Source: Sphagnum compactum | Lineage: Eukaryota | Direction of reading: 5' to 3' | Length of the DNA stretch: 64,000 bases | Assembly (NCBI GenBank): GCA_965153455.1 | Contig: OZ234494.1 | Coordinates: forward strand, 1,798,001-1,862,000 | Part shown: piece after piece, positions 14,908 through 49,270 of the stretch | Layout of the letters: each line of letters opens with the position of its first letter | Numbering within the stretch: the first letter of the stretch is position 1 | Program-made: the position numbers and the translations under genes | Notes under the pieces: generated by a model | The model's database searches: none | The model's input: only the letters and a program-made list of their open reading frames with translations | Told to the model about the DNA's origin: nothing

Positions 14908-16143
14908 TTATCTTTGCTTGATGGCAGCTCGGGTGGCCTCTTCATGAGAGGATGGAAAAAGCTCCACATATCGACTCCCCAATGTCATTTTGTCCTTGTT
15001 CATTGCAGCCTTAGCCTCCAAAGTACTACTAAATTCCACAAAGGCTTCCCCAGTGGCCCGCCCATCACCATGCACTACAATATGCACATTCTCCTCTGCA
15101 AGGGAAAAACCCCTGAAGAACTCTATCACATTCCGTTTGGATGCTGAAAAGGGCAAGCCCCTGAGCTTTAATACCCCAGTGTGCTTTAGATGCTCTTTTC
15201 CAGAGCGAAGAGGTTTCATAATCACCGACGATATTATTGGAGGCATTGGCCGAGATGGTAAGAGGTCATCGGATCTCTTGCAGGGGTCGGCAACATCAGC
15301 GGCAACGGCATGGTAGTAGTCTTGTTTCTTGCACCTAAACACTTCAATGTAACGTCGTCCCATATTGTGTCGGTTCTTCTGTAGTGCATATTCTACCTGC
15401 ACAGGTACTCCAAGGACCACAAAAGCCTCCCCTGAGAAACGGCCTTGTTTGCGCACAAGGAGTACATCCACCACGTCCAACCCCGCAAAGAACTCAAACA
15501 CATCCCCATCGCTGCAGTTAAACGGCAACCCCCTGAGGCGCACCACAGGCAGTGGCCTGGGCTGCCCCAGCAGCAGGGAGGCCCCCCCATCTATGAGGCG
15601 TTGCCTTTTTGCCCCGACCTCGTATGCATCCGCACCCCCCAAGTAAGACCTTCAGTCCATCCCCACCCAACATCCCACGTACTCACCCGCGTCAATATTG
15701 CTCCCATCTCACCCTCGGCTAATCTCTATTTAGTTGGCGTGTTTCATAACACACTGGCTCCCCTCGGAGCCTATTGTTTTTAGTCTAAAGAAGTGAGAGA
15801 GGAAACTAACGAGTGCATGCGATGAAGAAGACACTCACTGATCAATGTAAACCCTTGTTTTCCAAAAAACTGTGGTTTTTCTACCATTACTTTTCTCCAA
15901 TTTGGACTAAACAGAACAATGTCGTCGGAAATTGCCACAGAAACGAGGCCAACTCAAAAGCCTTTGACTGTGCCTTTATGTTAACTAAATTCTTTTTTGA
16001 GTACAACCAAACATATACAAACTCCTTTAGAAAAGTTCGGGAGATGGGTGCCAATTGAAATCATCATCTTCATCAAGCTGGAAAACATTATGAGCTTGTA
16101 TGTTTATTCCTCTCTCACTCACTTACCCCCTGGAAAACATCAT
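14908..16143 (-). CDS. hnRNP F/H-like RNA-binding protein with two qRRM domains (~252 aa)
   Basis: Exon 1 is 16143-16127 (ATG ATG TTT TCC AGG GG|GTAAGT), spliced to exon 2 at 15649-14908, giving MMFSRGSYLGGADAYEVGAKRQR... It has two qRRMs: VVRLRGLPF...GEAFV...RYIEVF and VLKLRGLPF...GEAFVEF...RYVELF. Confidence 0.9.
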
Positions 16144-16264
16144 AATTGGTGTCCTCCACCTGACTTTTCTCATACAATCGATCCCACTCACATGATCCTT
16201 TGGTTTCAATAGGTCCCTTTTCACAGAAGTGACTCAAAATTATTTCCGTCTGCTCCTGCAGGCG

Positions 16265-16286
16265 TCTCTCTCTCTCTCTCTCTCTC
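16265..16286. repeat. (CT)n microsatellite in the 5' leader of the hnRNP F/H-like gene
   Basis: About 11 TC units in a row. Confidence 0.85.
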
Positions 16287-18129
16287 CTTCGCCCTTGGGC
16301 CCCCCACCAACCCCCAATCTTTCCAACCACTTTTGGTAAGGATGTTGACGTAATTGAACAATGGATTTCGACACCGCCCTTTGAGGTGGCCTAATTGCAA
16401 CTCTCTCTCGCTACGCCTTTCTTCCTCTACTTCTCTGTCTTTCACATAGTCTGACTCTCTTTTCTGCAACATGATGGTTAGGGTTAGTTTCTGTTCCTTG
16501 CAAGAAATAGTGGTCGTTAGGAGGAACCAACCGCAACATCGGCACTACCAACACCTGTCCACCACATTACCTGTCTACCTCCCCAACACACATTTTCTAC
16601 CTGCTGGAGATTGTAACTGGGCACTTGCAACAGCATCAGAAGGATTTAGGGCTTCTCGGCCTCATGAACATTCATCTAATTTTAACAAGTCAAGATGTGG
16701 CTAGCTCATAGCTTTCCAAACTGTGGGGATTTCACACTGGGTATTATAGGGGAACCACTTCCAAGATTATGTTGCAGTGCAATAATGCATTGTTCTAATA
16801 GAAGGTGCACAGCAGTAGCCATGAGGCAGGGACTGACAGGGTTCCACAGAGACCTGATCCCCACCACAATGTGCCTGAGCATTGAACAACTTGAACAAAC
16901 ATGGAATGTCATGTAGATAAACATTGATCGGATATGTAGATAAACAAGATCCCCACCATGAAGTAGTGCAGTCTGGGGTTTGCTGGGTGTTCTTCATGTA
17001 CTTCATGTGCTTGCTTTCAAACCTTCCATGCTGGACAGCCCAGGCCTCAACATATCATTAGAAGAGTTGACTTTACTGACATTGATCATCCTACTATCAG
17101 AGACAGAAATTCAAAAGTTGTGGATTGCAAAGAAGGCCTACCTAGCAGCTTTTAGTTCTCAAGTCAGAAGGTGTCATTTAACCATAAGAAAAGATGAGGA
17201 GATACCAGGTCTGATTTGCCATGCTTGAAGTGATGCGACATGGCAATATGCACAAGTAGAATACTACTTCACTTGCAAGACCAGAAAATATTATGTAAAG
17301 CCTTCCTTGCAAGTAAAGGATTGAGAGTCCTACTAGAACCAGCCGAGTACAAGACTATGCCAACCATAACTATGGTCTTGCACATATGTGACTAAAAAAG
17401 GTCAGCAAGCAACTCCATGGACATTTCTTTGCAGAAGCATTTAAGTCCAAAAGCCCTCACATTTTATGGGAAAGTGCAACTGCACAGCAGATCCCACCAA
17501 CTCCTTGATATATGCCACATTCTCCAGGTTTCCCATCCATCCACAAGATACACCTCATGGAAGTCAACTAGCATTCAGTGTCTACTTCCTTAACATCATC
17601 CATAATTATTGAGACAACACTAGTAAGAATTTTCAACCAAAAGGCATAAAAGCATTGTCCACCAGAGATTTGATGGGGTTACTTTGTGTTTCAAATACAT
17701 ATAAACTAACCAGCCCTACTGCAGGCATCCTGGGGTATTTTATCAAATAGGCAGCACTCATTGAGTTTGGTACTTGTTTGAATGCTCGAAGAGGCCAGAT
17801 GAACTCACCACAAAGCGGTGATACATGCAGTTTCCAAAAGGTATAGGGCATAAGAATGTTGACATTCAACACCCGTCTGCTTCAACTAATTAGGGTAAGC
17901 TTGGAACCCAATGTTTCTCAAATTCAATGGTACAAAATTGGCATCCCCAACAGGACATGTAGGCTTGAATATAGGGTTCAAGAGAACATACAACTTGAAC
18001 AAAGTGAATGCTGGAAGACCTCAGTTTCAATGGGTTACTAGGTCAAACAGATTATCATGGTTCTGACTCATATACAAGCAAGGTGGAGTGACAAGAGAGT
18101 TCATAAAATTGATGAGTTCAATGGCCCAC

Positions 18130-20318
18130 CTTAATTTGCTGGTGATTGTAGGTGTATGTTGCATGAATGTGATCATCAGAGCCCAATACTACTGCAGAAT
18201 AAGAAAACTGCCCTTCATCTTGATTTTCCAGTGTCATGTAGTAATCGTTCCAAGTGTTGCCATCATCATCAGAGATGGCCACTATAAGAACCCCACGAGT
18301 TACTGATTTATAAAGCACTAGAAACCGTCCATCAGGTAGCTTCACACCATAAAATCCTGACCATTTGGCCACACTACAGTTTGTGAGAGAGAAGCACATT
18401 GAAGTATGCTGCAACTTTGCAGTAAACATCAAAGAAAGAGACAAACTGAGTTGTGAATAGCCTTATTTTTAGTATTCAAAGTGAAATGGAAACTGCTAGA
18501 AATATGCATGTGAGGAGGTTGAGAGTGGAATAGAAAAAAGAATGGAGGTGCTTATGTCAATTAGTAAGTTGCATAGAAGAGTACACAAGAATTATTTGCT
18601 CGTCCAAGAAATACAAGGACTAACCAGAGTTGCAATTGACAAGATCAGTGGGAGTTGCAATACTCCATGTGACTCCCTCATCAAGTGATGATGCCATGCA
18701 TATTCTTCCAATCCCATCTGAAGCCCTCAAGAGGACCGGAATGATACCCTGGGCTGTTACAAATGGAACTGGTTGAACTCACAAGGCAGCAAGATAATGT
18801 CAATCTTGTAGAAAGAAGCAGCTTGCCGGTAGGCATTTTGAAAAAGGGTTCCACATGGGCCCTTCTGGTTCATCATCCACCAGCTCTGGAGAGCTCCAAA
18901 CCCCTCCCTATTTGTGCTAGCAACAAACATTTCAGTTCCCTTCTTCCTACTTCACTTCATATGCATATCAGGACTGAACATGGCAAACAGCACTATGATA
19001 GCCTTGACAAAACTCCTGCCACTTAGAAGTCATCACGGTTTGAATCCTCAATCTGAGAGATCCACTAAAGAAAAATACATTAGACATGGAGATATATTGT
19101 CTAAGGAAACAATTCCATCTGTCTGCTTTTGGAGAATCCAATCAGGGGGACGCAACATTCAATGTGGCGTCTGGATACAGTACATTGTTCATATTGAGCC
19201 ACTCTGGCTAGGCAACAGCAATGAGAATGACAATACAGAAGAACTAAATAGGTCCAAAAAACTTGAAGACCATAAAAAAAGATGGATTAGAGGTATACCT
19301 TGAGGTGGGAGACCTATATGCCAACATCACCAAGCCCCTCGTAAGTGCCTGCAAAATAGGCTACAAGGAAAGATCCTGGTTCCAACTGCATGCCAATAAC
19401 AGACGTGGTAGCCAGAATAATGATATGTAGCTCTCTCAATTTCATCAGCGTCACTTGCCAATCAACGATCTGAACACTGGTGATCAGAAAATATGACACA
19501 AGAAAATCCAAATATGAAATAACAAGCGACCAAAGTGACCATCTCACAGTACAGTAATGTCCCAAGTTCTGGCAGCCATTGTTAAGAAGTACCTCAACTA
19601 TGGAAGAGGCATGACAACTAGGGAATGGCACTGCTCCAAGCTCAAACAAATACTCCTCTTTCACCAGGGCACTCTGAGGGAAGGGGCTTGTCTCATTCTC
19701 AAACGCAGACTGCATCTGAGTATCTTCCTCAGGATTTTCTTCCATACTACTGCAGCCACAACCACATGGCCAAATTGTTTACACATGGGCACAGCTATTT
19801 GTGTTAGTTGCACACAGTCGGGTTCAATAATTTGCTCAAAGCTAGCAAGTGTTTTGAAAGTCTATCAGATTATGCTCTTAAAGACCAGAGGATGAATCCC
19901 TAACCTCTAAACATAAACTTCTGCATGAACTGGAGTAGATGTGGGCACCAACTAGGTTAGAAAAAATGATATTCCTAGCAACAATGTTAAGACATGGACA
20001 TGTTCTAATGTAAATGAAACTCAGTCTGAAATATGCATATTGCTGAGAGATTTTGCTGTTCTTAGGTCTAAAAATTTCTTTACTACCTCTGGAAGTTGTT
20101 TTTGTGTGTCTTTTTCAATCCAGGGGAACCTTATATTATCAGTCTCAGGAACTGGGTCACCCGTGTCATCATCAGCTGTAGGCAAACTTTTGCAGAAAGA
20201 GGATATGATCCCAAGGGCAATGCAAATAGTAATCAACACAAGTGCCCATTCTGTGGAAAATTTGGAATAAACCGCTGGAGTCCTGACAATGTCCTGAGGC
20301 TCCAGCAATCCCACCCCC
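18130..20318 (-). pseudogene. BNR/Asp-box repeat (sialidase-fold) family pseudogene
   Basis: Exons ~19749-19593 (PFPSCHASSIVE), 19385-19299 (FLVAYFAGTYEG..DVGI*), 18907-18625 (PMWNP...QPVP...SLDEGVTW) and 18356-18130 (ISDDDGNTW...FSY..V...HATYTYN). Lesions: TAG at 19314-19316 where Trp is expected, frameshifts at ~18810-18845 and loss of the central region. A signal-peptide-like exon lies at ~20318-20130. The first and last exons are unresolved. Confidence 0.85.
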
Positions 20319-23882: not shown

Positions 23883-26800
23883 AAGACTATTTGTAGAGCT
23901 TGAGAAGGTGCTCCTATAACATTTTAAATCACTCAAAGTGGAGAAGAATTGTGAAAGATCTGCCAAAATGTTCGATCATAGGTAGGCAATTGGTGATGGG
24001 CCAGTTTACCTGAAAGAATCACCTGATTTTCCATAGTAATTTTGGTTATTTGTGCACATGAAAGACCTTTAGACCTTTTTGAATTGGAGCCTCAAATTTG
24101 GCCTTCTCCCATATCTAGGAGTGTCATGTTGACATGGCATCTATATGGTGCTGACATGGCTCTGACATGCCATGTGGCATTTTATGTGGCACTGATGTGA
24201 AAGCTGACATGGCATTCATGTGGCACCTTGAAAAGTTTAGGAAACAGACATTCCCACACACGTATTTCCCATGTTGAGAGCGTTGTATTCCCATGTGAGA
24301 TTGTCACATTCTCCTATGGCACATGATGTTCCCATGAATGTGAACATTGATAATCTTGTTGTCCTTTCATGTTTTGGAATGCCTGGTCCTCACACAATTA
24401 TGATCATTGAGTATCATCCTATCATGTTCCCACATTTGGGAGCATCTTGTTCACACCTATTTACATATGTAATTTGTAAAATTAAAAGGAGGACAAAGGA
24501 TATGGGATAAACTTTTTAGTTATAATATAATATGCAACTAAGTTGTTTAATTATAAATTAGGTTGCAATTAAAAGTTTTATCCCATATGTTTTGTTCTTT
24601 ATTTCTATCCTGTAAACTATATATCGAAATTTTTTTTCATACATTTTCATATTTAAAAAATGTGCCATTTGAGATTATTTAATCAAATAAACTTAATCTT
24701 AACTTCACTAAAACCAAAACACTATAAGAAATTGCGTGTGTTGAATCCATGTTGTCCTACAACGAGAGTTTTAAAAAACTCATATACAATGATTGTGCAA
24801 CTATTCCTTGAGTATTACAATTATCATGCAATTATCCCCTTAAAAATATGAGGACTTAATAAATAAATTTTCATGTTAAAAAATCAATTAGTTGTATTAT
24901 AATTGCAAATGAATTGAAAATGGGTCTTCTATATAATAATTCGTACACACCATACAATACATTCGTAGTGAACCATGTTTGATTTTTTGAAAAGTTGCAT
25001 TGTAATTGCATGTGATAATTAATTTTAAAATGTTATAAATGTGTTGCCACTAACACAACAACTATGTTACAATTAATGTACAATGTACATACATGTGATC
25101 ATGCCATGTGTTTGCATTTTCACTATCTATTATGGGATACATTTACAACTAATTTTCAACCATGATTCTCATTGATACAACTAGTAAGCCCATTAGTGCA
25201 CCACTATTGAACTATTAATGTTCAACTATGTTATGATTATTATGTAACAATTTATAATTTATATGTATTTAATATAATTTGATATGTATTATTTTATAAA
25301 TATATATTTTAAATAATTTGATTATTAGATATTGATTGTGCTTAATACATTTAATTATTATGAACTTATCAATTATATTAAATAAATGACTATTAATCTG
25401 AATAAATAAAAGCAATCCACATAATTATTTTTAATTAATTAATTAATTATGTTAATTAAACTAAATAATATGGATGTATTAAAAAATAATTATTCATCAA
25501 GTAATAATCAAATAAATATTTATTTGAATTGTGGATATTTAATAATGAATAAAACCGATTAATGAAAAAAATTATTATTTCATCAATAATTACAAGATCA
25601 ATAATTTTTTAAAGAAAATAAAAAAATTAATTATATGGATAATTATAATTAAATTAAACATGACTATGCATATAGATAATTAATCATCGGATAATAAATG
25701 ATCAAAAATCAAATAATTTGAAATAAATAACTTAAAAAATAAAATGAATTAAACTGATTATTTCACATAATTTTTATTTAGCTAATTAAATTAAACTATT
25801 TTTAATTAATTAATTACTTAATTGAACTAAAATAACTAATTTAAAAACTAATTCACTAATTAATCCAAATATTTAATTCTCAGATATTTAATTCAAACAT
25901 TTATTTTCAGATCATTATTTCAGATAATTAAATATTAAATAATTGATTCACACATATAAATATCAAATAATTACTAATTTAATTGTATGACTTAGATAAT
26001 GAAAAACAAATATAAAGCATGTGAGAAAATCTTTTTGTAGTTATAACTAAAAACCAACTAAAAGATTTAACCCATATGCTTTGTTTATGAATCCCATATC
26101 ACAAATTGTATAAAGAAGGTGTCTTCTCTTATGTTTTTAAATTAAAATACACATGCCATTTTATGATAAATTAAAAATACTTAACCCCAGAAGCAAAACA
26201 TAAAATAAAATGAAAATATTTACATAACTATTTTTTAATTCTCCTAGTCTTGTATTTTTCTACCTACTTTCCTACCTATGTAAGTAAGTAGGTCTTATTT
26301 TTCTACCTACCTATGTAGGTAAATAGGTATGTAGTGTAAGTAAGTAGGTTTTAGGACCTACCAACCTACCTATCTATGGCTATGTACTGACCTACTTAAC
26401 ATTAAAATAGATTATTTTTCCAAATTTCAATTAATGCGCCATGTGGCAATTTTTTTTATTGTGCCACATGTCATAATCTCAAATTATCATTGACAATCAT
26501 AATAGATGATGGAAATCAATACTTCAAAAAGAAAATCATTTTTAGATTCCAAAATCCTCATAATGTCATGTGTCAAATGAAATTAACAAGATTAACATGA
26601 CATTATGGCTATAGTTGTAGTGAAGTTGCATGGTAGTTGAAAATGAATTGTCTTGACAAAATTGCAATTGAATTGTGATGAATTACATCATATATATGAT
26701 GTTTTGTAAATGGTCATTACAACTCAAAAATTAAGTTGTAAGGTCAATTACAAAACCCCATTTTTCTCATAGTGAAATAAAAATATGTTCCTAACCGTTA

Positions 26801-28289
26801 ATTACCCTACTTCTTTAACCTACCTTGGTAGGTGGGTACCTCCCTACCTACCTACTTATTTATTCCTATTTACCTACCTATTTAAAGATCAATTTAAAAT
26901 TTATTTTGACCAAAATTTTATTTCATTTTCGTGAACTTTGTCCACATTATGCCATGGGGTAGAATCCCATTAAAGCAAATTATGCCACATGGCAATATCC
27001 CATTATAACACATTGTGACATGTGGCATATTTCTATTGATCAATGTGGTGACATTGTAAACTGTTTAAAGTAAACATGAAAATTGAATTTACAGTTTCAA
27101 AACAAAATTATTTTAAAATCTATTATGTTACCAAATGGCAATTAGTGTGAATGGATTATATGTTAGTTATATATGGATAATCAATGGATGAAAGTGTATT
27201 TGTTGATCATATACATCATCCATGTGAAATGTGTTGACATCATAATGAGTCATTGTTCGTGATTAAGTGTTGAATGCGGCTTCACTTATGCAATTAATAT
27301 TTTTTTAGTTGTTGATGTTAGTTGCAACTTATTTGGAATCACAAACTTTAATTGAAATTTGACCCTTTTCTTTTAATGTTACATGTTTTTCATATGCCAT
27401 TTAGTTGTTGGTAAGTTTCAACTTGTGTGTATGTTATGTGTGTGTTTTCAGTCGTTTGTGTGCATGTGTAACTTGTGTACTATGTATAATTCTTTTAGTT
27501 TGTTTTATTAGGGTGTAACATGCATAGGTGGGTCATATGCATGTGTTTTGTTTGTAGTGTTGTTGGATGTGTGTATACACAACATACAACACAAACATAA
27601 AACATATTAGCATATTACACAAACCCTAATATAATAAACTACAATGAGTAATTAAATGTCCATAATTATGTGGCTAATATAAGATTTTAGATATGTGCCA
27701 TGTGTGTAGTCAATGTAATCAAAAGAGACAATTATTAATTAGCATTTGGACAATTAAATAAAACATGATGTTAGTAAATAAATCAACACAAATCCACATC
27801 AACAAAAACTACTAAACAATATAGTTAAACATACATGACACTTATTTAATCCACATCATCAAGGTTCTTAGACAAATAGTCAAAAAATACATGTTAATTA
27901 TTATTACATGTCATCTAACAATACTAGATGATTTAGTGAAAAAAGACATGCCAATTATTATGCCATGTCATCTATCATTACTAGACAATTTAACAAAAAA
28001 ATACAAGACACATGTCATAACACATTAGCTAACATTAGTAGGCATTTTAGTCAAAATGGACAAAACACCCATAATGACATGTCAACTAGCACAAAGTCAC
28101 AAGTTAGTCAAATTAAACATGACATGTTGGAATAAAGTAATAACTTTGTCATGATTGATTTGTCAATTTATATTGTATTAAATGATTGATTATTTCTTAT
28201 TATATCATCACCCTATCTGACTATTGTTTTTACTAAAACTTAGTTTTAAAAAACAGTGTCAAAGACAAGTTTTGTAATAATGACTATTC

Positions 28290-28750: not shown

Positions 28751-29499
28751 CAAATTCACAACAACTTTCCTAACTTCCCTTTGATTTAATGGACTAATCC
28801 ACTAAAGGGTCAAATTAAAAAACCATTTTTTTGAAAATGTTTTTTTACCTTTTGTATATGATTTATGACAAAGGTGGATTGTGGGACCCATGCAACAAGG
28901 AAACAAAATTGAAAGTAGCAACACTTGGTATTAGATGGTCATTATAAAACAAGTAAAGGCCAATGCAACATAAAATACATACCTCTTCGAGTCACCGAAC
29001 CAACCAGCTAGTTAAAAGTGTCGTGGTGTGTCTTACGACCATGTGAAAACACAACAAGCTTTCCACCACAAAATTATTTATCATTTGAAAAATTGTTATA
29101 CACAATTTTTGAAGTGGATTGGAATTTTTGTGAAGGGGGTAACCAATCCATTGAAATCACTTTTTAAAAAACTTTTGTGCAACATTACTTGTCTCAGGAC
29201 TTACAAGACTAGGAACAAAAAATGTAGCTTGTAATATTTTGGTATTAGGGTTGTAGCTAAATCATGCTAAACCTAATAGAATAGTGATTGTGACACCCAA
29301 GCTTATAACAAAGTTAGGGTTTGGCTTTGACATAATGCTTTAGCTAGAACCCTTCGGAGGTTTCTTATTTTTTTCTTGTTAATTCATTTAGTATTGTGTG
29401 GTTCATTTTGTAGACTTCAAATTACCTTGTCATAGCAGGTAATCTTTAGAAAATAGGGCCTTTGCTCTTATTAAGCCTTTTTCCTCATAGGCACCAAAC

Positions 29500-32400
29500 A
29501 TCCCATGTCCCCAAGTTATCATGTATCTAAACTTCGTAGTTCCCATTGCCCATCTGCTTTATTATCCGCCACCACAAGCCCATTTTTCACCCCATCCCCC
29601 ATGCAAACCACGAACTACCCACTAGTTCCCCCTCCCATTCCAACAAATCACACACCACCTATTAGTTCCCCTTACCCGCCCCCGTCCCTTTGTCTGAATG
29701 TCGAACCCCAACCCTACATTTTCCTAAACCCCCTTGATCATGCACATGTAGGACCTTTTCCCCTTTCCACTTTATTGGCCCCTATAGTTGCCAATGATCA
29801 GACCTCCCAACCTACCCCCATTTCCTCAACACATTCACAATTTCCACTTAAAATTTCTTGTCCCACCTATGGGCGCCAATTTACTAGTCAAAGGTTAATT
29901 TGTCATCAACATTTTTGTTAGGCATCCAATTCATCTAATCTAAACCCCTATGACCATCCCGACTCAATACCTTCTTTTGTTCCCACCCCACCTGCATCAG
30001 CTTGGACTTGGGTTTCGTCCTTGGATGTCATCGAGTCTTTCCATTTAAGCTTTTGTTGTCTTCAATTATACAACCGCATCCCTTTAATTCGTAAATTTTT
30101 TTTTGCAGTTTAATGTTGGGACATGTAGGGGAATATTTTCGAACAATTCGCGTTTTAGCACGATTTTCCCACGCACCCACGTCCTTTAACACCACCTCAG
30201 CTCTCCCTGCAGTACACCCTGAATTAGATGACTACTTCTTGCTTTTCTTTGAAAACTACAAGCTAGACCAGGACCTTGAACTTTTTTCTAATTCCTTCAA
30301 GTTGACATTCTAATGCATGCCACATTTATCGGCAAATGGTGCTTCTAGGATGGTTTTTGAACACCTTTGAGATTATTTTCACCCAAAAGATTCAACAAAT
30401 GGATTCCCTTAGTTGTTTTACCTTTGTTTTCATATTGCACAAGTCACATTCCACCTCAAATTGCATGTATCTTTGGAGTGGCCCACCTTTTAGCCATGAC
30501 CAAACCTTTAGGTGGAGTTTGTTCCACTGTAGTGGGGGAAACATTATATTGAATCACAAGTCATGCTTTATGCTTTCAATTCCACAATGCCTTAGCAATA
30601 CATTTCTCCTCACACCAATTTGGAGTTGTAACTAAAGGCGGTTGTGAAATAGTAATTCAATTAGGTGCACCTTGGACCTTCACCCCAACTAGGTTGTTTT
30701 TTAATTGGACGTGGCAAATGCCTTCAATTTGGTGTTAAGAAAGGTCATATTTTAAGAACTTTGTGTAATAGGTGGAGACCTTACACAACTCATGCCCTTT
30801 ATTCATGCATTCTATGCATTTGAGTCTCCTTTAATTATAATCATCCCATCTACCATAGGAACCTATCAAGGTGATCCCTTGGGAGGGGCACTATTCATTT
30901 TAACCCATTTTAAGGCTTTACGTTTTACATCTAGTCATTTCCATTTTTATTTAATTCCATCCATTGCAAATGACACTCACATCATAAGTCCCCTTTTAAT
31001 TGTATCATCTACATATGATCAATTTTAGACTGAATTCCATGCGATAGGTTTTTCTATTCAACTTTAAAAATGTGTAGGATGGTCACCTTTTGGCTTACCG
31101 TCTTATTTTAACACCCCATCCCAATTTACTACCCCATAGAAAGGAATTAAAATATTGGGGGTTCCATTGGGCACCTCATTAGTCATATCATCCTTCATAA
31201 AAGATGCCCTGCTAGAGGATGTTCGACATGTGAACCTTTTCCCTATAATGGGTGATGTTCAAGTAACTTTTGGAATTTTAATTCATTACTTTGTGCAACA
31301 ACCATTGTATCTCTTATAATGCGCATTTCCCTCTTCCACCTTCATAGAATCCTTTATTTCTTTTGACTCCAGCCTCCTTCAAGTGTTTGGGCGCCTTTTG
31401 GGTCCAAGATCCTTTGATAGCCCATAAAGACCTTTAGCCCATAAAAAAACCTTTCTCCTAATAACTTTTGGTGGCATTGGGCTCATATCAATAGCCACCA
31501 TTGCCCCAGTAACCTATTTAGGGAGTTGGGTCCTTATAATTTCAGTCATAATTGTTAAGTTTATGGTTGATCAATGTCCCTTCCTTCTTGAAGCTTTAGC
31601 ACAAGTCGACAACAACACCCTCCTTTTCCAATGACACCTCAAGGCAACATGTGATCTTTTACTGCCCCTGACTTGCCCGTGTCTTCATCCGTTTAAATTA
31701 CTTATCGAACAACAACTGGTTTAACTTCAAAATTCTATCTTGGAACATCTACACCAGCATACCCTTTCCAGCATGTTGTTCGATGAGATGTTTAAGGCCC
31801 ATCATGCTTGAATTTTATCATGTACTGGCCCACGGGCGGGCACTTAACTTACAACTTGACTAGTGTTCCCAACCTTTCAATTATCTTCCCCATTATTTTC
31901 CATAACATTTTGAACACAATTTAAACTACCCCATCCTTCAATTGCAGGTATTCATTAATGTGTGTGCACACATCCCATTGACCCTATTGGTATCCACTTC
32001 TTATGTTGCATTCATGGCAAACGCATGGAAACCCATGATGTAGTTTGTGACACCTTTGTTGCCATTGTGCAAGATGCTAATTTTCACATGGGACGAAAAC
32101 AACTTCATGCGTTTCTTTCAACCACGTTCAATTCCTCTTATTAACAAGTTGACATTGTGCTCACCAAAGATCATGGCATTTGCACTCTAGCCGACATTAT
32201 CATTGTTGACCCAACAGGAATGGATTTACTTCCCCAATCTTGTGCAATTGAAAGATTTGCTGCCTCCGATGTGATTCAAGCCCAAAAAAAGAACTATCGC
32301 AACGAACACCCCATTGATCAATTCTTCTTTTCAACAATTAGGGTATTTGAATGTTTACACAAATAAATTAATGTGTTTTGACACGATTATGCCAATGCCA

Positions 32401-44200: not shown

Positions 44201-46664
44201 AAAAATAATGAACACCCAAAAATGTATAATATGCATTAACATTTTGATTCCTAAACCATTCCTAACCCATTTTTGACCCAATTCCTAACCTTTTTTTTAA
44301 AAAGTGTCCTTACACTTACACAATAGATTTTTTTTTGGATTATTTAGTACATGCACAAAAGAATGATCCAAACTAGTCATTAAAAAAAACAAAAGGTGAA
44401 AATAATTATCATTTGTGTTCTTGACATCAATGCCCTTTTGGGGCTTCACAATCTTGATTTCAAAAATTCATAACTAAATCAAAATTGATTCAATCAATTA
44501 TTTATAAAAGATATTAAATAGGTTGGCATTTGAAGTATTTTCAAAAGTTAACATCCAAAAAAAAATTTCAAAAAATATATTCATTTTGTGTTCTTGATAA
44601 AAGAAAATCCTTTGTGGGACAATCCTAATACTTTTTCCTTATGCATTCATTTTTCACATCAAAACACATTTTTTCGTAAATTTAGTTAGAGTTTTGAATT
44701 CTACATGACTTGGGTAACCTTTTGATAAATAATTTGGAATGAAAAGCTTTCTTTACGTGAATCCTATGTTGTTTTGAAGTTGGATGGGTCACAAAAATTT
44801 GGGGTGTGATGTTCCTAGTGGTACCACCCAAGGATAAATTTACTGCGTGGTCTCTTTTTGTTTTTTTTAAACCTCCCATTATGTGGCAAATTTTTTCTTA
44901 GTAGGGGAGATGGTAGTTTGGTATTTAGTTGCCCTCATACTAGGCACAAAAACATGTAGAGATCATAAGCTTTCATTCACAAACACAATAGCCTTCTCAT
45001 GAACAATAAAAGCAATGGGGGTAAGGTTACCTGTAATAGTTGGAAACTCCCCTTTTTCATCCAACATTTGTCTTTTCCCCTTTGTTCCACCCAATATGAT
45101 GAGGAACCACCATCGGGTTCATGTTTGGGCCACTTGCCTTTTTATGGTGTAGTCTTGGTAGGTCGACCACATGTTAACTACGTCAAAGCTACCAAGGAGG
45201 TCATTGGGTTTTCCTTACTAAACCCAAGGGTGATCACCCATTTTTCCACCATATTCATCTTGATGCCTTTTGTGGAACACACTAGCCAATGTGGGTTGTG
45301 TGGATTAAAGTAGCATGGGCATCCCACATTTGTCCCTTTAACTCTTTGTCCAAAATTTCATACCACAATTAAACAAATTGAACCTTTGTCATGCCTTGTA
45401 CATCACCATAATCAACATATATATTTTTACATAGGCTTTTTAAAGCTCTCATGGGGCTTATGTTGAAATTTTTACCTTCCATTTGTTCCACTATTATTAA
45501 AAGCTATGGCCCACTAATTGGAACCAAAGTTCTTTAGTGATGGAAACATAATTGAGGGACCAATATAGTTGCCATTCTTCAAGCTCAAGCTTGTAGGCAC
45601 ATTTGAATTCATAGTAATAATCCATGGGCAATCCCTCCAAATGTTGGAACAACCTTTTCCATGCCATGAAGGGTGTAAAAAATTATGGATTATGCATTTG
45701 TTACATATCACACCAATTATCAAACTCTTGGATAAAATCATTTAGTTCAATGTTGCTAACTGCCCCCAAATATCAACAAGGCCCTTTGGTGGCTCCATAT
45801 ATGTTTTCCATGTCCCACAATAATGGTGTGGTGACAAAGCTTAGAGGTGAATTTTTATTTGAATATGAGGACTCCCCACTAAATGAAGATGATGGTGGTG
45901 TGGTGGTTTCAATCACACCCCACACTTGGTAAAACCATTCGTACTTTTCAAAGTATCCCTTATTTCCAAATCTTGTGTTATTTTTGTGATGAACATTACC
46001 CCTAAACCATTAATAAAAAAACTATCTTTTGTAGCTTGTTTTGTGTAATTACACATGTCGCATGCAACTAAAAAACAACTTTGCATGCGACATTTTTTAA
46101 TTGCACACGACATGTGTAGTTACATAAGACAAGTTGCAAAAGACAATTTTCTTTTAATGAACTAAGATGGACTTGTGGGTTTTTCTTGAACCTAAAAGGA
46201 TGTTAAACCTATTACGGTTTAACCTGCCTTTTAACCATGATCCTTATAACATAAACATAGGGATGTTGCACCTATATGGTTAGGGCGCCTACACCAACAA
46301 AAACATTTCGCAAGGCCAACATAACTTGGGCACACTGTGAACACAACAAAAATGGTATATCGGCCATCAACTTGATTTCATCACTACAAACACAACATGG
46401 GATGATTGGTGATCAAATCCAACACATTTGTAACAATGCCATTTTGATACAACCTATCCCCAACTAAACATTAATCATTATGTTTGAGAAAAAAAGGGGT
46501 CAAATAGGATTTACATAGTGGTCAGAATTAGGTGGTAGTCTTGTTTTATGCTCAACCATTAACCACACCGGCCACAACCCCAAAGTTCATTATGATAATA
46601 AAAACATGTGAGGGAAGGTACATAACTTTTCACCTTGGGTTTCCCATTATGTAATATGTATGAA

Positions 46665-47318
46665 CTAGTGTGTACCCGGTGCATAATGCACCCGTCGAGC
46701 TCCCCCCCGCCCGGTCCTTCCCATTGCCCACTCCGGTTCTTTACCCCGTCGACCCCCCCCCCCCCGTCCTTCGCATTTTCCACTCCGATTCTTTAACCCG
46801 TTGATCCCCCCCGTTCCCCTGTTATATATAATTAACTTCCCGCCCCGTGCTGGCCCCCCCCGCCCGTGCTGGATGGATTCCAAACATTTCATCCATTTAA
46901 GCCGGACGGACATTTCATGCATCTCATCATCCGTCTATTACTGGACGAACATTTCATCCATCCCGTCATCCGTCTAATTAAGCCGGACGGACATTTCATG
47001 CATCCCGTCATCCGTCTATTACCGGATGAACATTTCATCCATCCCGTCATTCGGCTTAAATGGGGTGAAAGGAGGACAACATTTGACAAAGCATGCATGG
47101 AAAGGGTGACTATCTACTGTCCAAGTGAAAATTGAACAGTGGACAGTCCACTCTCCACACCAAACACAACTGGCCAAAAAAATCCCCTTCCTCTCCCCCC
47201 CCCCTCCCTCCACCCACCCCCCAAAACCTCACCCGCTGCGTCACCGGGTGACATCCCTCCCCCACCCCCCAAAACCTTCGTCACAAACACAGAGACTTAC
47301 TGAATTAATATATTAAGA
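46665..47318 (-). mobile_element. Non-autonomous Helitron (654 bp)
   Basis: On the minus strand the 5' end is A|TCTTAATATATTAA (47318) and the 3' end is CTAG|T (46665). A GC-rich hairpin GGTGCA-TTA-TGCACC lies just upstream of the CTAG. It sits in an A|T target with no TSD and contains internal ~40-bp tandem repeats (GGACGGACATTTCATGCATCCCGTCATCCGTCTA). Confidence 0.85.
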
Positions 47319-49270
47319 TTTATGATAAATCAACATAAGAACTTATATTCACCCATTAAATTGGTTATCAATGGCTCACAACTCATGAAACCCCTTTAAA
47401 ATGATTTAAAAGCCCAATCAACACAATGACATGAAACATGTGCACCCAACAAACATAAAGGGAAATGCACAAATCATGCAACACAAATCCCCATTTTTAC
47501 AATTCTCACACAAAAATCACAACATGAATTCAAAAGTTTCCCCATTCATTAATGTTGTGGCACTTCATCACATGTTGATAATGGGAATGTGTGTTTATTT
47601 TGCAAAAACAAAATTAAAAAAATTCAAATTGAAGTTGTTGACCTGTCTCACACATAATCACATGGTTCATTAGAAAATTCTTCCAAAAACTTTTGTCTCC
47701 AAATTAGGTTGTAGCATTCCACATGCATAGATTTTTTTCTTAGAATTCAATGTTGCAAATGGTATTCCATTTTGAATAAGTATGAAAAATATATGAATTT
47801 ATGAGATTTAATGTGAAACAAAGCCCCAAAAATTAAAAAGTAGTTTTTTGAATTCCCCAAACTGCAGTTTTCAAAAATTTTACACGTTTGCACATTTATA
47901 TGTGAAGCTATGAGCTTTTAAAGTTTAAGGATGGATGAAAATTTCTCATCCACATGAGGAATGACAAATTGACCATTTGGATGAAAATAAAAATGAAAAT
48001 AAAAAACCTTGAATGGATGAAACATTCTAACTATATGGAATATTCCAATTATGGATGAGAAGGATTCCAAATGGATGAATTTTTAAAAATACCAAAAATC
48101 CAAAAAAATGAAGAAAAACTGTAAAATGGGCGAGCTTGGAACTCATAGCAATGGTGACACGGAGCTCCAAGCTTGAATTCCCAAAGAAAGATTAACAAAC
48201 AAAAATCACTGCCCCGAAAACACCCATATCACCTCTAGAAGCAGACCAAGCTCTCGACGCGAACTACAACTCTTACCCTAGTTGCAACATGAATTTTTTT
48301 TTTGTGCAAAACACAAAAATAAAAACCTAGTGCTCAGCAAAGATTGAATCTAAATACAACACAAAACAAAACAAGAACAAACAACTTTTGATAATTTAAA
48401 AAAAAAACTCACTCACAACAACCAATGATTCGAAGAATCCAAAATATAAAACATAAGAACACAAAAACCATGTGCAAATAAAAACTGAAAAAACCTACAA
48501 AACACAAAACATTATATTTTAGAATCATAAAAAATAAAAATGATTTGAAATCACAAAACTTCAAATTAAATCTCAAACACGAAATACTTTGTTCACACTG
48601 GAACTAATTTCAAGATAACTTATCTGGTTTGTTTATGCCACGTAAGGTGTTCCAGAGCCAATGTGAATTGGCCTAAAAGAAGAGAAGTTTGACGCATACA
48701 GGCATTGCAGGGTATGGGTATGGGTATCCACATTTGGTTCAAACCCTAGATGCGGTGAAGGGATAAGCTTCTTCGCCATCTCCCCTACGCTTGTAAACTT
48801 GGTTTTAACATACATTTTCCATCTCGCTATCGCGTCTCCTAACACTTTGCGGACCGTCAAAAACCTCCATGACCTACGTCTCTCTGAAGAGATTGCTCTG
48901 AAATAACTGCTGAGGACGTTCTCTCGGCTGTCTTCGGCTTCGGACGGCTCCAGATTCTCAGAGTTGTGAAAGGTGGGTATCCACTCTTGTTCTCTGGATT
49001 TGATTGTTGTGGCTCGCGGTTGCCTGAGGCTGGGAATTATGGGCTGAGGATCTGATTCTTATGGAGTTGAACTTTCTGGTCTGGGGACCGTCCGCGGGTG
49101 GTTGTTTGGGTAGAATGTGTTCAGATCTGCGGTTTACATGCTGTGGTTTTGGGGGGGAATGCGGAGGCGAAGCTTAGACCTTGTAAGGGTTTCAGGCGAG
49201 GAGGAAGGGAAGACGGAGGGGGAAGGGATTGCAGACAAACCGAGGAAGAGAACGGGGATTTTTGGATGCA

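Follow-up and report, generated by a model that had tools for sequence, protein, structure and literature searches.

A pyrimidine-poor, G-tract-embedded 3' splice site in a Sphagnum hnRNP F/H-like gene and its possible part in regulated unproductive splicing

Metazoan hnRNP F/H proteins, those of vertebrates among them, bind G-triplet and G-run splicing elements. Splicing loops that limit themselves are amply documented for SR proteins, PTB and GRP7/8. [quoted passage not shown] The present analysis concerns an hnRNP F/H-like gene on the minus strand of a 64,000-nt stretch of Sphagnum compactum DNA (assembly GCA_965153455.1, contig OZ234494.1, positions 1,798,001 to 1,862,000), called the window below; all positions are those of the window, and features of the gene lie on the minus strand. 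The functional mRNA of this gene is made by joining 16127 to 15649, at a 3' splice site (acceptor) that has no pyrimidine tract and sits within a dense cluster of G-tracts. An initial annotation, made from the letters of the window, had proposed that this acceptor competes with a stronger, unproductive one upstream in a switch plausibly set by the encoded protein itself; its observation is confirmed here and its interpretation is partly supported.

The closest described system is the Arabidopsis gene At5g66010 (at-hnRNP-F / AtRNPH/F_1), which carries the entry 'AltA (1)' in the ASRG table (entry in PMC545797) and is alternative 3' splice-site event no. 59 of an Arabidopsis reverse transcription-PCR panel (extracts from PMC3526319 and PMC3315328). 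As these extracts give it, the forward primer of event 59 ends in the start codon (M-Y) and the reverse primer reads VRLRGLP of qRRM1, so that the assay spans the interval in which the Sphagnum intron falls. The products of 105 and 182 nt are labelled 'coding (PTC in s)', PTC being a premature termination codon, and occur at about 30/70%; the ratio shifts on over-expression of AtGRP7, and in the opposite direction with SR30. In the NMD study covered by the same extracts the 182-nt band stands at 0.37 in wild type, at 0.27 in upf1-5 and upf3-1 (both p>0.1) and at 0.52 under cycloheximide (CHX; p=0.049), and the event is classed as 'change in CHX only'. In moss, Physcomitrella PphnRNP-H1 and PphnRNP-F1 are phytochrome-interacting splicing regulators according to passages of a review (PMC11060691); moss proteins of this family link phytochrome signalling to splicing, and intron retention is the commonest alternative-splicing class in Physcomitrella. 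The literature searched held no paper describing self-regulation of a plant hnRNP F/H protein, and the literature matches listed for Sphagnum and alternative splicing included nothing relevant. The supplements of the Physcomitrella light-splicing paper give hnRNP-complex genes by Gene Ontology term only, with no link to the hnRNP F/H-like family.

The gene and its productive 3' splice site

The window is moss DNA, and its minus-strand gene encodes a Sphagnum-type hnRNP F/H-like protein with two qRRMs. The translation of 15648-14911 (246 residues) is 99% identical, at 100% query cover, to a 262-residue protein of Sphagnum troendelagicum (P0001), and other bryophyte and lycophyte proteins, several of them named hnRNP F/H-like by their sources, are 65-73% identical to the gene product. 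Pfam RRM_1 matches the protein in two stretches at E 3.1e-14. In a phmmer comparison with the PDB the best solved relative is human hnRNP H qRRM1-2 (6dhs; E 1.8e-32, two matched stretches); the hnRNP F entries 2hgl, 2hgm and 2hgn match at E 1e-13 to 3e-17, and the qRRMs of GRSF1 and ESRP1 also match. By this family test, two qRRMs with significant sequence similarity, the gene is a clear hnRNP F/H relative, and the identity proposed in the initial annotation stands on homologues, domain model and solved structure alike.

The coding part of exon 2 (14908..15649) comprises 246 codons and a split Gly, includes both qRRMs, ends in the stop TAA at 14910-14908 and is interrupted by no further intron of the coding sequence (CDS). 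Its frame is shut by a TGA at 15654-52, which overlaps the acceptor, and offers no in-frame ATG until mid-qRRM1, so that an upstream exon is required. This exon 1 (16127..16256, reaching at least this far 5') is drawn from the sequence and from two contigs of RNA run X1, record 3 spanning 16125-16256 and the spliced record 1 spanning 16125-16154. It carries the 5' untranslated region (UTR) and ends ...TCC AGG GG at 16127, in phase 2 (GG/, where the slash marks the splice junction here and below). Joining 16127 to 15649 yields exactly the N-terminus of P0001. The ATG ATG at 16143-16138 opens the MFSRG N-terminus conserved in P0001 and land-plant homologues, and read from there the joint gives the M[FY][SA]RG start common to Selaginella, Diphasiastrum, Amborella and others. 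Ten codons upstream of the MFSRG start lies a further in-frame ATG (16173-16171), which is the start chosen in the annotated Sphagnum homologue, and a minimal upstream open reading frame, an ATG followed directly by TGA, lies in the exon 1 sequence at 16193-16188. The N-terminal extensions of homologues called as open reading frames (34 proteins), used as a proxy for the intron end, were for the most part uninformative, most of these proteins beginning at internal or alternative starts. A repeat at 16257-16298 was excluded from read mapping, hence the transcription start is not placed.

Four RNA runs were mapped on 15290-16639, namely three metatranscriptome assemblies (X1, X3 and X4) and raw reads of a poly(A) run (X24), of which about 12% was read and 6 raw reads mapped; contig depths overall are 2.5-10.7. 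The productive joint, recorded as 'skips 477, CT..AC (cut +2)', occurs in one 1229-nt contig of X1 at depth 6.6, and again in 1/6 raw poly(A) reads of X24. In all six of these reads the first mate maps to the plus strand, the orientation that a usual stranded library gives for minus-strand RNA. RNA joint and protein homology agree on 15649 as the productive acceptor, the role it had been given from sequence.

The intron removed by this joint (15650..16126, 477 nt) is the sole one within the CDS. Its 5' splice site, GG/GTAAGT (16121..16126), is identical in 6/6 Sphagnum sequences, the window included, and in RNA that keeps the intron translation would run into GGG TAA, an immediate stop. The intron core (16126-15785) is 62% AT and has one G-run, and the last 135 nt are 36% G with seven G-runs. 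The productive AG (15650..15651, in CTGAAG/G with exon start 15649) is marked by the sequence, the RNA joint and a scan of AGs; the in-frame TGA at 15654-52 overlaps it, and it is therefore the sole AG that keeps all of exon 2 open. For comparison, the 20 nt upstream of each of the 7323 AG dinucleotides in the window, both strands, were scored. Before the productive AG 7/20 nt are pyrimidines (mean 9.7) and 11/20 are G (top 0.83% for G), which bears out the earlier description of a productive site without a pyrimidine tract. A candidate branch point that fits the consensus YTNAY can be read from the sequence as TTGAC (15691..15695); its A, at 15692, precedes the productive AG by 42 nt, and the single AG between the two (15683-82) is about 10 nt from the candidate branch point.

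The intron also contains a donor-like GTGAGT (15681..15686), 37 nt from the productive acceptor at 15650. A cassette poison exon running from 15784 to 15687 and joined to 15649 was considered and rejected: the leftover intron would measure only 37 nt, below the minimum plant intron length of roughly 60-70 nt, and such an exon is therefore unlikely. On rereading the minus strand, every coordinate of the initial annotation (donor 16126, acceptors 15784/15649, TAA 15732-30, GTGAGT 15686-81) was right.

G-tracts at the acceptor and the competing AG upstream

The cluster of G-tracts extends across the productive acceptor (15565..15714), with nine runs per 150 nt. Intronic runs lie at 15714-12, 15705-03, 15688-86, 15676-74, 15668-66 and 15664-61, and exonic runs at 15640-35 (G6), 15615-12 (G4), 15588-82 (G7) and 15568-65 (G4). 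The final 60 nt of the intron are 47% G with five runs of at least three G, to which the first 100 nt of exon 2 add the G6, G4, G7 and G4. Centred on the productive acceptor, 150 nt hold nine runs of at least three G vs a window mean of 1.19, which places the site in the top 0.33% of sliding windows; nine runs are reached by 2/852 non-overlapping windows. The only other places within one run of this density are ~29400-29800 and ~46600-47400 (both on the minus strand) and ~49000-49200 (plus strand). The G-run motif of the family, as a motif present and not as binding, adjoins the productive splice site here, and also in a second moss.

That second moss comes from a scan of metagenome contigs, which gave six loci, five of them genomic Sphagnum DNA (L001-L005), 96-97% identical to the window over 2.4 kb, and one of another moss (L006). 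Across the six Sphagnum sequences, which are close relatives and differ by only 2-3%, the donor, the upstream pyrimidine-tract AG, the TAA, the GTGAGT, the G-runs and the productive AG are identical. Variable positions among these sequences number 1/124 in exon 1, 8/342 in the intron core, 3/50 in 15784-15735, 0/85 in the last 85 nt of the intron, 4/739 in the CDS and 35/508 in the 3' flank; within the intron, variation is densest in the segment 15784-15735, which follows the putative poison acceptor. In L006, a 68%-identical gene, the acceptor again reads TGAAG/G and an in-frame TGA goes with it; 6/20 nt are pyrimidines, 13/20 are G, and there are nine G-runs per 150 nt. ATTGAT stands 45 nt upstream of this acceptor, a distance similar to that of the candidate branch point. 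Judged from the two sequences, what is recurrent across the two mosses is a G-rich, pyrimidine-poor acceptor design, not the upstream site or any demonstrable sequence.

When the window intron is compared with the 401 nt upstream of L006, only a GA microsatellite aligns. In the window this GA/CT repeat lies just upstream of exon 1 (16265-16298, minus strand) and varies in length among the six Sphagnum sequences; in L006 a similar GA repeat occupies 275-306, 95 nt before exon 2. An apparent shared CTTTAGACT near a possible decoy was discarded as being at chance level (173/300 shuffles). In a close relative of the L006 gene on a 10-kb contig (P0014), the called open reading frame has a Gly/Trp-rich N-terminal extension that is a read-through of the G-rich intron end. 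Set against L006 356-402, the TGA before the acceptor must be a sense codon in P0014, and the extension may be a gene-caller artefact or mark a lineage with a coding intron end.

The candidate competing 3' splice site (15785..15806) consists of the tract TTTCCTCTCTCACTTCTT and then TAG/A, with the AG at 15786-15785 and an exon start that would fall at 15784; the acceptor as a whole reads TTTCCTCTCTCACTTCTTTAG/A. Of the 20 nt before this AG 17 are pyrimidines, top 0.42% of the 7323 AG sites. From GG/A the frame reaches the TAA at 15732-15730, the first in-frame stop, after 17 further codons into the insert, and TGA at 15711-09 and TGA at 15654-52 are also in frame. The claim that use of 15784 would truncate the protein therefore holds, with one correction: a distance of 135 nt (45 codons) separates the two acceptors, which share one phase, and the upstream one would be unproductive because the extra 135 nt hold three in-frame stops, no frame shift being involved. 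Among the 38 AGs of the intron at least one site this strong is expected by chance in about 15% of cases (arithmetic from the AG-site fraction); statistically, the decoy by itself is therefore unremarkable. The striking feature is its contrast with the real, G-rich acceptor, together with the G-run cluster. Thirteen further AGs lie between 15785 and the productive site, and the stretch is therefore not free of AGs, as it would need to be for the upstream tract to act for the downstream AG.

Recursive splicing via 15784 was rejected, as the joined sequence makes no GT donor. In the minimum-free-energy fold of 15830-15600 the upstream tract (15806-15787) pairs with purine/G-rich 15715-15700, and given this predicted pairing G-tract binding could in principle unmask the upstream acceptor. 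The fold is no better than shuffles (z -1.45; 21/200 shuffles fold equally well). G-quadruplex (G4) energies leave it unchanged; one G4 candidate with loops up to 12 nt is present (15688-15661), and a canonical four-run G4, with loops no longer than 7 nt, is not found in 15830-15600. RNA structure was accordingly set aside as evidence, the fold and G4 results being at shuffle level or non-canonical. An intronic RNA gene was also dropped as a candidate, the only Rfam match over 15400-16500 being a Streptococcus sRNA at 24 bits vs a gathering value of 48 (E 0.24).

Explanations for the weak acceptor

The explanation that we tentatively favour is some form of regulated unproductive splicing at the productive acceptor. 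The weak, G-tract-embedded 3' splice site would be the regulated step, and qRRM proteins that recognise G-tracts, the likeliest being the encoded protein and its paralogues, would bind there and set the efficiency with which it is used. Where the site is left unused the RNA would be unproductive either way, by retention of the intron with its GGG TAA or by use of the 15785 AG with its early stop. On thin data, inefficient removal or whole-intron retention seems no less likely an outlet than the 15784 acceptor. The feedback could take either direction, repression via the exonic G-tracts or activation via the intronic ones. Self-regulation is plausible and unproven; it draws circumstantial support from the G-tracts that flank the weak acceptor, from the recurrence of this G-rich acceptor in a second moss gene and from the Arabidopsis alternative 3' splice-site/PTC event. 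If it is true, the protein would recognise G-tracts in its own pre-mRNA and so choose between productive splicing and a truncating outcome, whether retention or the competing acceptor. That the motif bound by the family crowds round an unusually weak acceptor, and does so in two moss genes, provides a concrete experimental lead, not a discovery.

The outlet by retention can be set beside the RNA libraries. Intron-covering contigs are present in 3/3 metatranscriptome assemblies at depths near those of the exon, namely 4.5 vs 6.6 in X1, 10.7 and 2.66 vs 5.7 in X3, and 2.5-6 vs 7.8 in X4. In X1 and X3 coverage is absent upstream of about 16280, a pattern that suits unspliced RNA more than DNA. 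In X3 a separate 212-nt contig (15622-15833), covering the end of the intron and the border of exon 2, has a depth of 10.7, above that of the exon (5.7) and of the rest of the intron (2.66); it could be low-depth noise, a stable intron fragment or an internal transcript.

Several points weigh against regulated unproductive splicing. The intron-covering contigs may be DNA in RNA libraries, among them the X4 contig, which extends to 16562, and the poly(A) run X24 has no intron read among its 6 reads in all. Binding of G-tracts by the plant protein would be carried over by analogy from its metazoan relatives. GGG is the preferred Gly codon gene-wide (5/6 in the first 33 codons, 8/15 in the rest), and a Gly-rich N-terminus with this preference therefore partly explains the exonic G-runs, which are not clearly beyond coding needs; the intronic G-runs are without such a coding explanation. 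The last 85 nt of the intron are invariant vs 11 variable among the other 392 intron positions, which suggests constraint on the part with the branch point and the G-tracts and is not significant (P about 0.09, our own estimate). Aligned with each other, the intron ends of the window and of L006 score no better than composition-matched shuffles (75/500). In Arabidopsis the PTC isoform is not significantly changed in upf1-5 or upf3-1, as far as the extracts go, which also tells against a decoy cleared by NMD. No experiment or read set here shows regulation, and the model is one that we infer.

Splicing at 15649 may instead be constitutive, the 15785 AG being a chance decoy and feedback playing no part; this is possible, if rather doubtful. 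The G-runs would then be generic intronic enhancers, or reflect local composition and Gly-rich coding, and the decoy would perhaps be masked or lack a usable branch point. Such splicing would account for the productive joint being the only one observed and for the single productive model of the annotated Sphagnum homologue, and it sits well with a decoy that is within chance (about 15%) and with GGG as the preferred Gly codon throughout the gene. Masking would find a ready form in the pairing of the pyrimidine tract with 15715-15700 in the minimum-free-energy fold, although that fold does not exceed its shuffles (z -1.45; 21/200). It accounts less well for a pyrimidine-poor, G-rich acceptor that recurs in a 68%-identical moss gene, for a G-run density in the top 0.33% of the window and for intron-covering contigs near exon depth, nor would it predict alternative splicing of the Arabidopsis orthologue in the same interval, as reported in the extracts. 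Even if merely constitutive, the acceptor would be a useful instance of a 3' splice site in a plant functioning with no pyrimidine tract.

The model of the initial annotation in its specific form, in which the 15785/15784 acceptor is really used, the PTC transcript is removed by NMD and the protein shifts the choice between 15784 and 15649, appears unlikely. The site itself is textbook (17/20 pyrimidines, top 0.42%), and the 13 AGs that follow it leave no AG-exclusion zone for the downstream site. Composition shifts from AT-rich to G-rich at about 15784, and under plant splicing rules such a transition favours a site there. The stop at 15732-30 would leave a 3' UTR of more than 820 nt, a long 3' UTR being an NMD trigger in plants. 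The G-tracts adjoin the productive site, and the Arabidopsis orthologue has competing 3' splice sites and a PTC in the same interval. Use of 15784 is nonetheless not borne out by the RNA: the 16127>15784 joint is seen in none of the 4/4 runs, at depths of 2.5-10.7, too low to reveal an isoform that NMD had depleted to a few percent. The junction count proposed as a check thus returns 16127>15649 and not 16127>15784, at a depth too low to exclude the latter. An unspliced X1 contig runs unbroken from 15676 to 16154 across 15784, ending about 27-28 nt inside both real splice sites, and by de Bruijn reasoning this argues, weakly, against a third path at 15784 in that sample. Among the Sphagnum sequences no part of the intron changes faster than the first 50 nt past 15784 (3/50 variable), and a tract of this strength among 38 AGs has the chance rate given above. 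Comparison with relatives gives a divided answer, the poison site being kept in 6/6 close Sphagnum sequences, while in L006 no strong upstream pyrimidine-tract AG is found in 401 nt (best 12/20). The geometry in Arabidopsis also differs, the PTC form being the shorter one, and the extracts show no significant change in the upf mutants.

That the gene model is wrong, with the true start or first exon elsewhere and 16127>15649 not the main junction, is very improbable: the Physcomitrium homologue P0011 is annotated with a different N-terminus and the transcription start is unmapped, the GA repeat 16257-16298 having been left out of mapping, but the joint occurs in two independent RNA data sets and gives an N-terminus conserved from lycophytes to Amborella, and the frame of exon 2 is closed by a TGA 3 nt upstream of the acceptor with no in-frame ATG before mid-qRRM1.

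Elsewhere in the window, a 114-codon open frame upstream of the hnRNP gene (18118-18462, minus strand) has an SDDDGNTW-like motif, which we take to be reminiscent of Asp-box/BNR repeats, and is probably an exon of a neighbouring gene. The block 24001-28000 is markedly AT-rich, with a GC content of 0.25-0.28 vs about 0.35-0.45 elsewhere.

Relation to known splicing loops

Regulated unproductive splicing at the Sphagnum acceptor finds its nearest parallel in At5g66010, a gene of the orthologous family in which the same interval has competing acceptors, one of them with a PTC; the intron would presumably occupy the same position in both genes. For this family, then, alternative acceptors of which one leads to a PTC have previously been recorded in the interval, in another geometry and with no clear NMD dependence. 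Unlike the Sphagnum case, the PTC form of At5g66010 is the shorter product (105 vs 182 nt), which puts the unproductive acceptor downstream, and it is abundant (about 30-60%); the literature examined reports no self-regulation. That the G-tract-embedded acceptor is the sensor of an ancient plant hnRNP F/H-like loop, of which the At5g66010 event would be the same loop since the moss/seed-plant split, seems to us improbable. Regulation through G-tracts would offer a candidate explanation for this long-listed and unexplained Arabidopsis event.

Plant NMD rules differ from metazoan ones. The metazoan hnRNP loops resemble the proposed model in that the protein binds its own pre-mRNA beside the regulated splice site and the alternative form carries a PTC or stays nuclear; they differ in working through poison exons or exon skipping, and the review passages name no hnRNP F/H loop (PMC7547044). 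AtGRP7 and AtGRP8 differ in that the alternative site is a 5' and not a 3' one, and in that binding and NMD dependence are experimentally shown there and putative here. Vertebrate G-triplet elements (PMC3606458; bioRxiv 10.1101/2022.11.29.518269) share with the Sphagnum site their GGG clusters beside a splice site in a pyrimidine-poor context; they are known from vertebrate genes, and the reading of G-runs by plant qRRM proteins is putative. PphnRNP-H1 and PphnRNP-F1, whose kinship to the Sphagnum gene is at family level only, belong to the same protein family in a moss and have been shown to act in alternative splicing.

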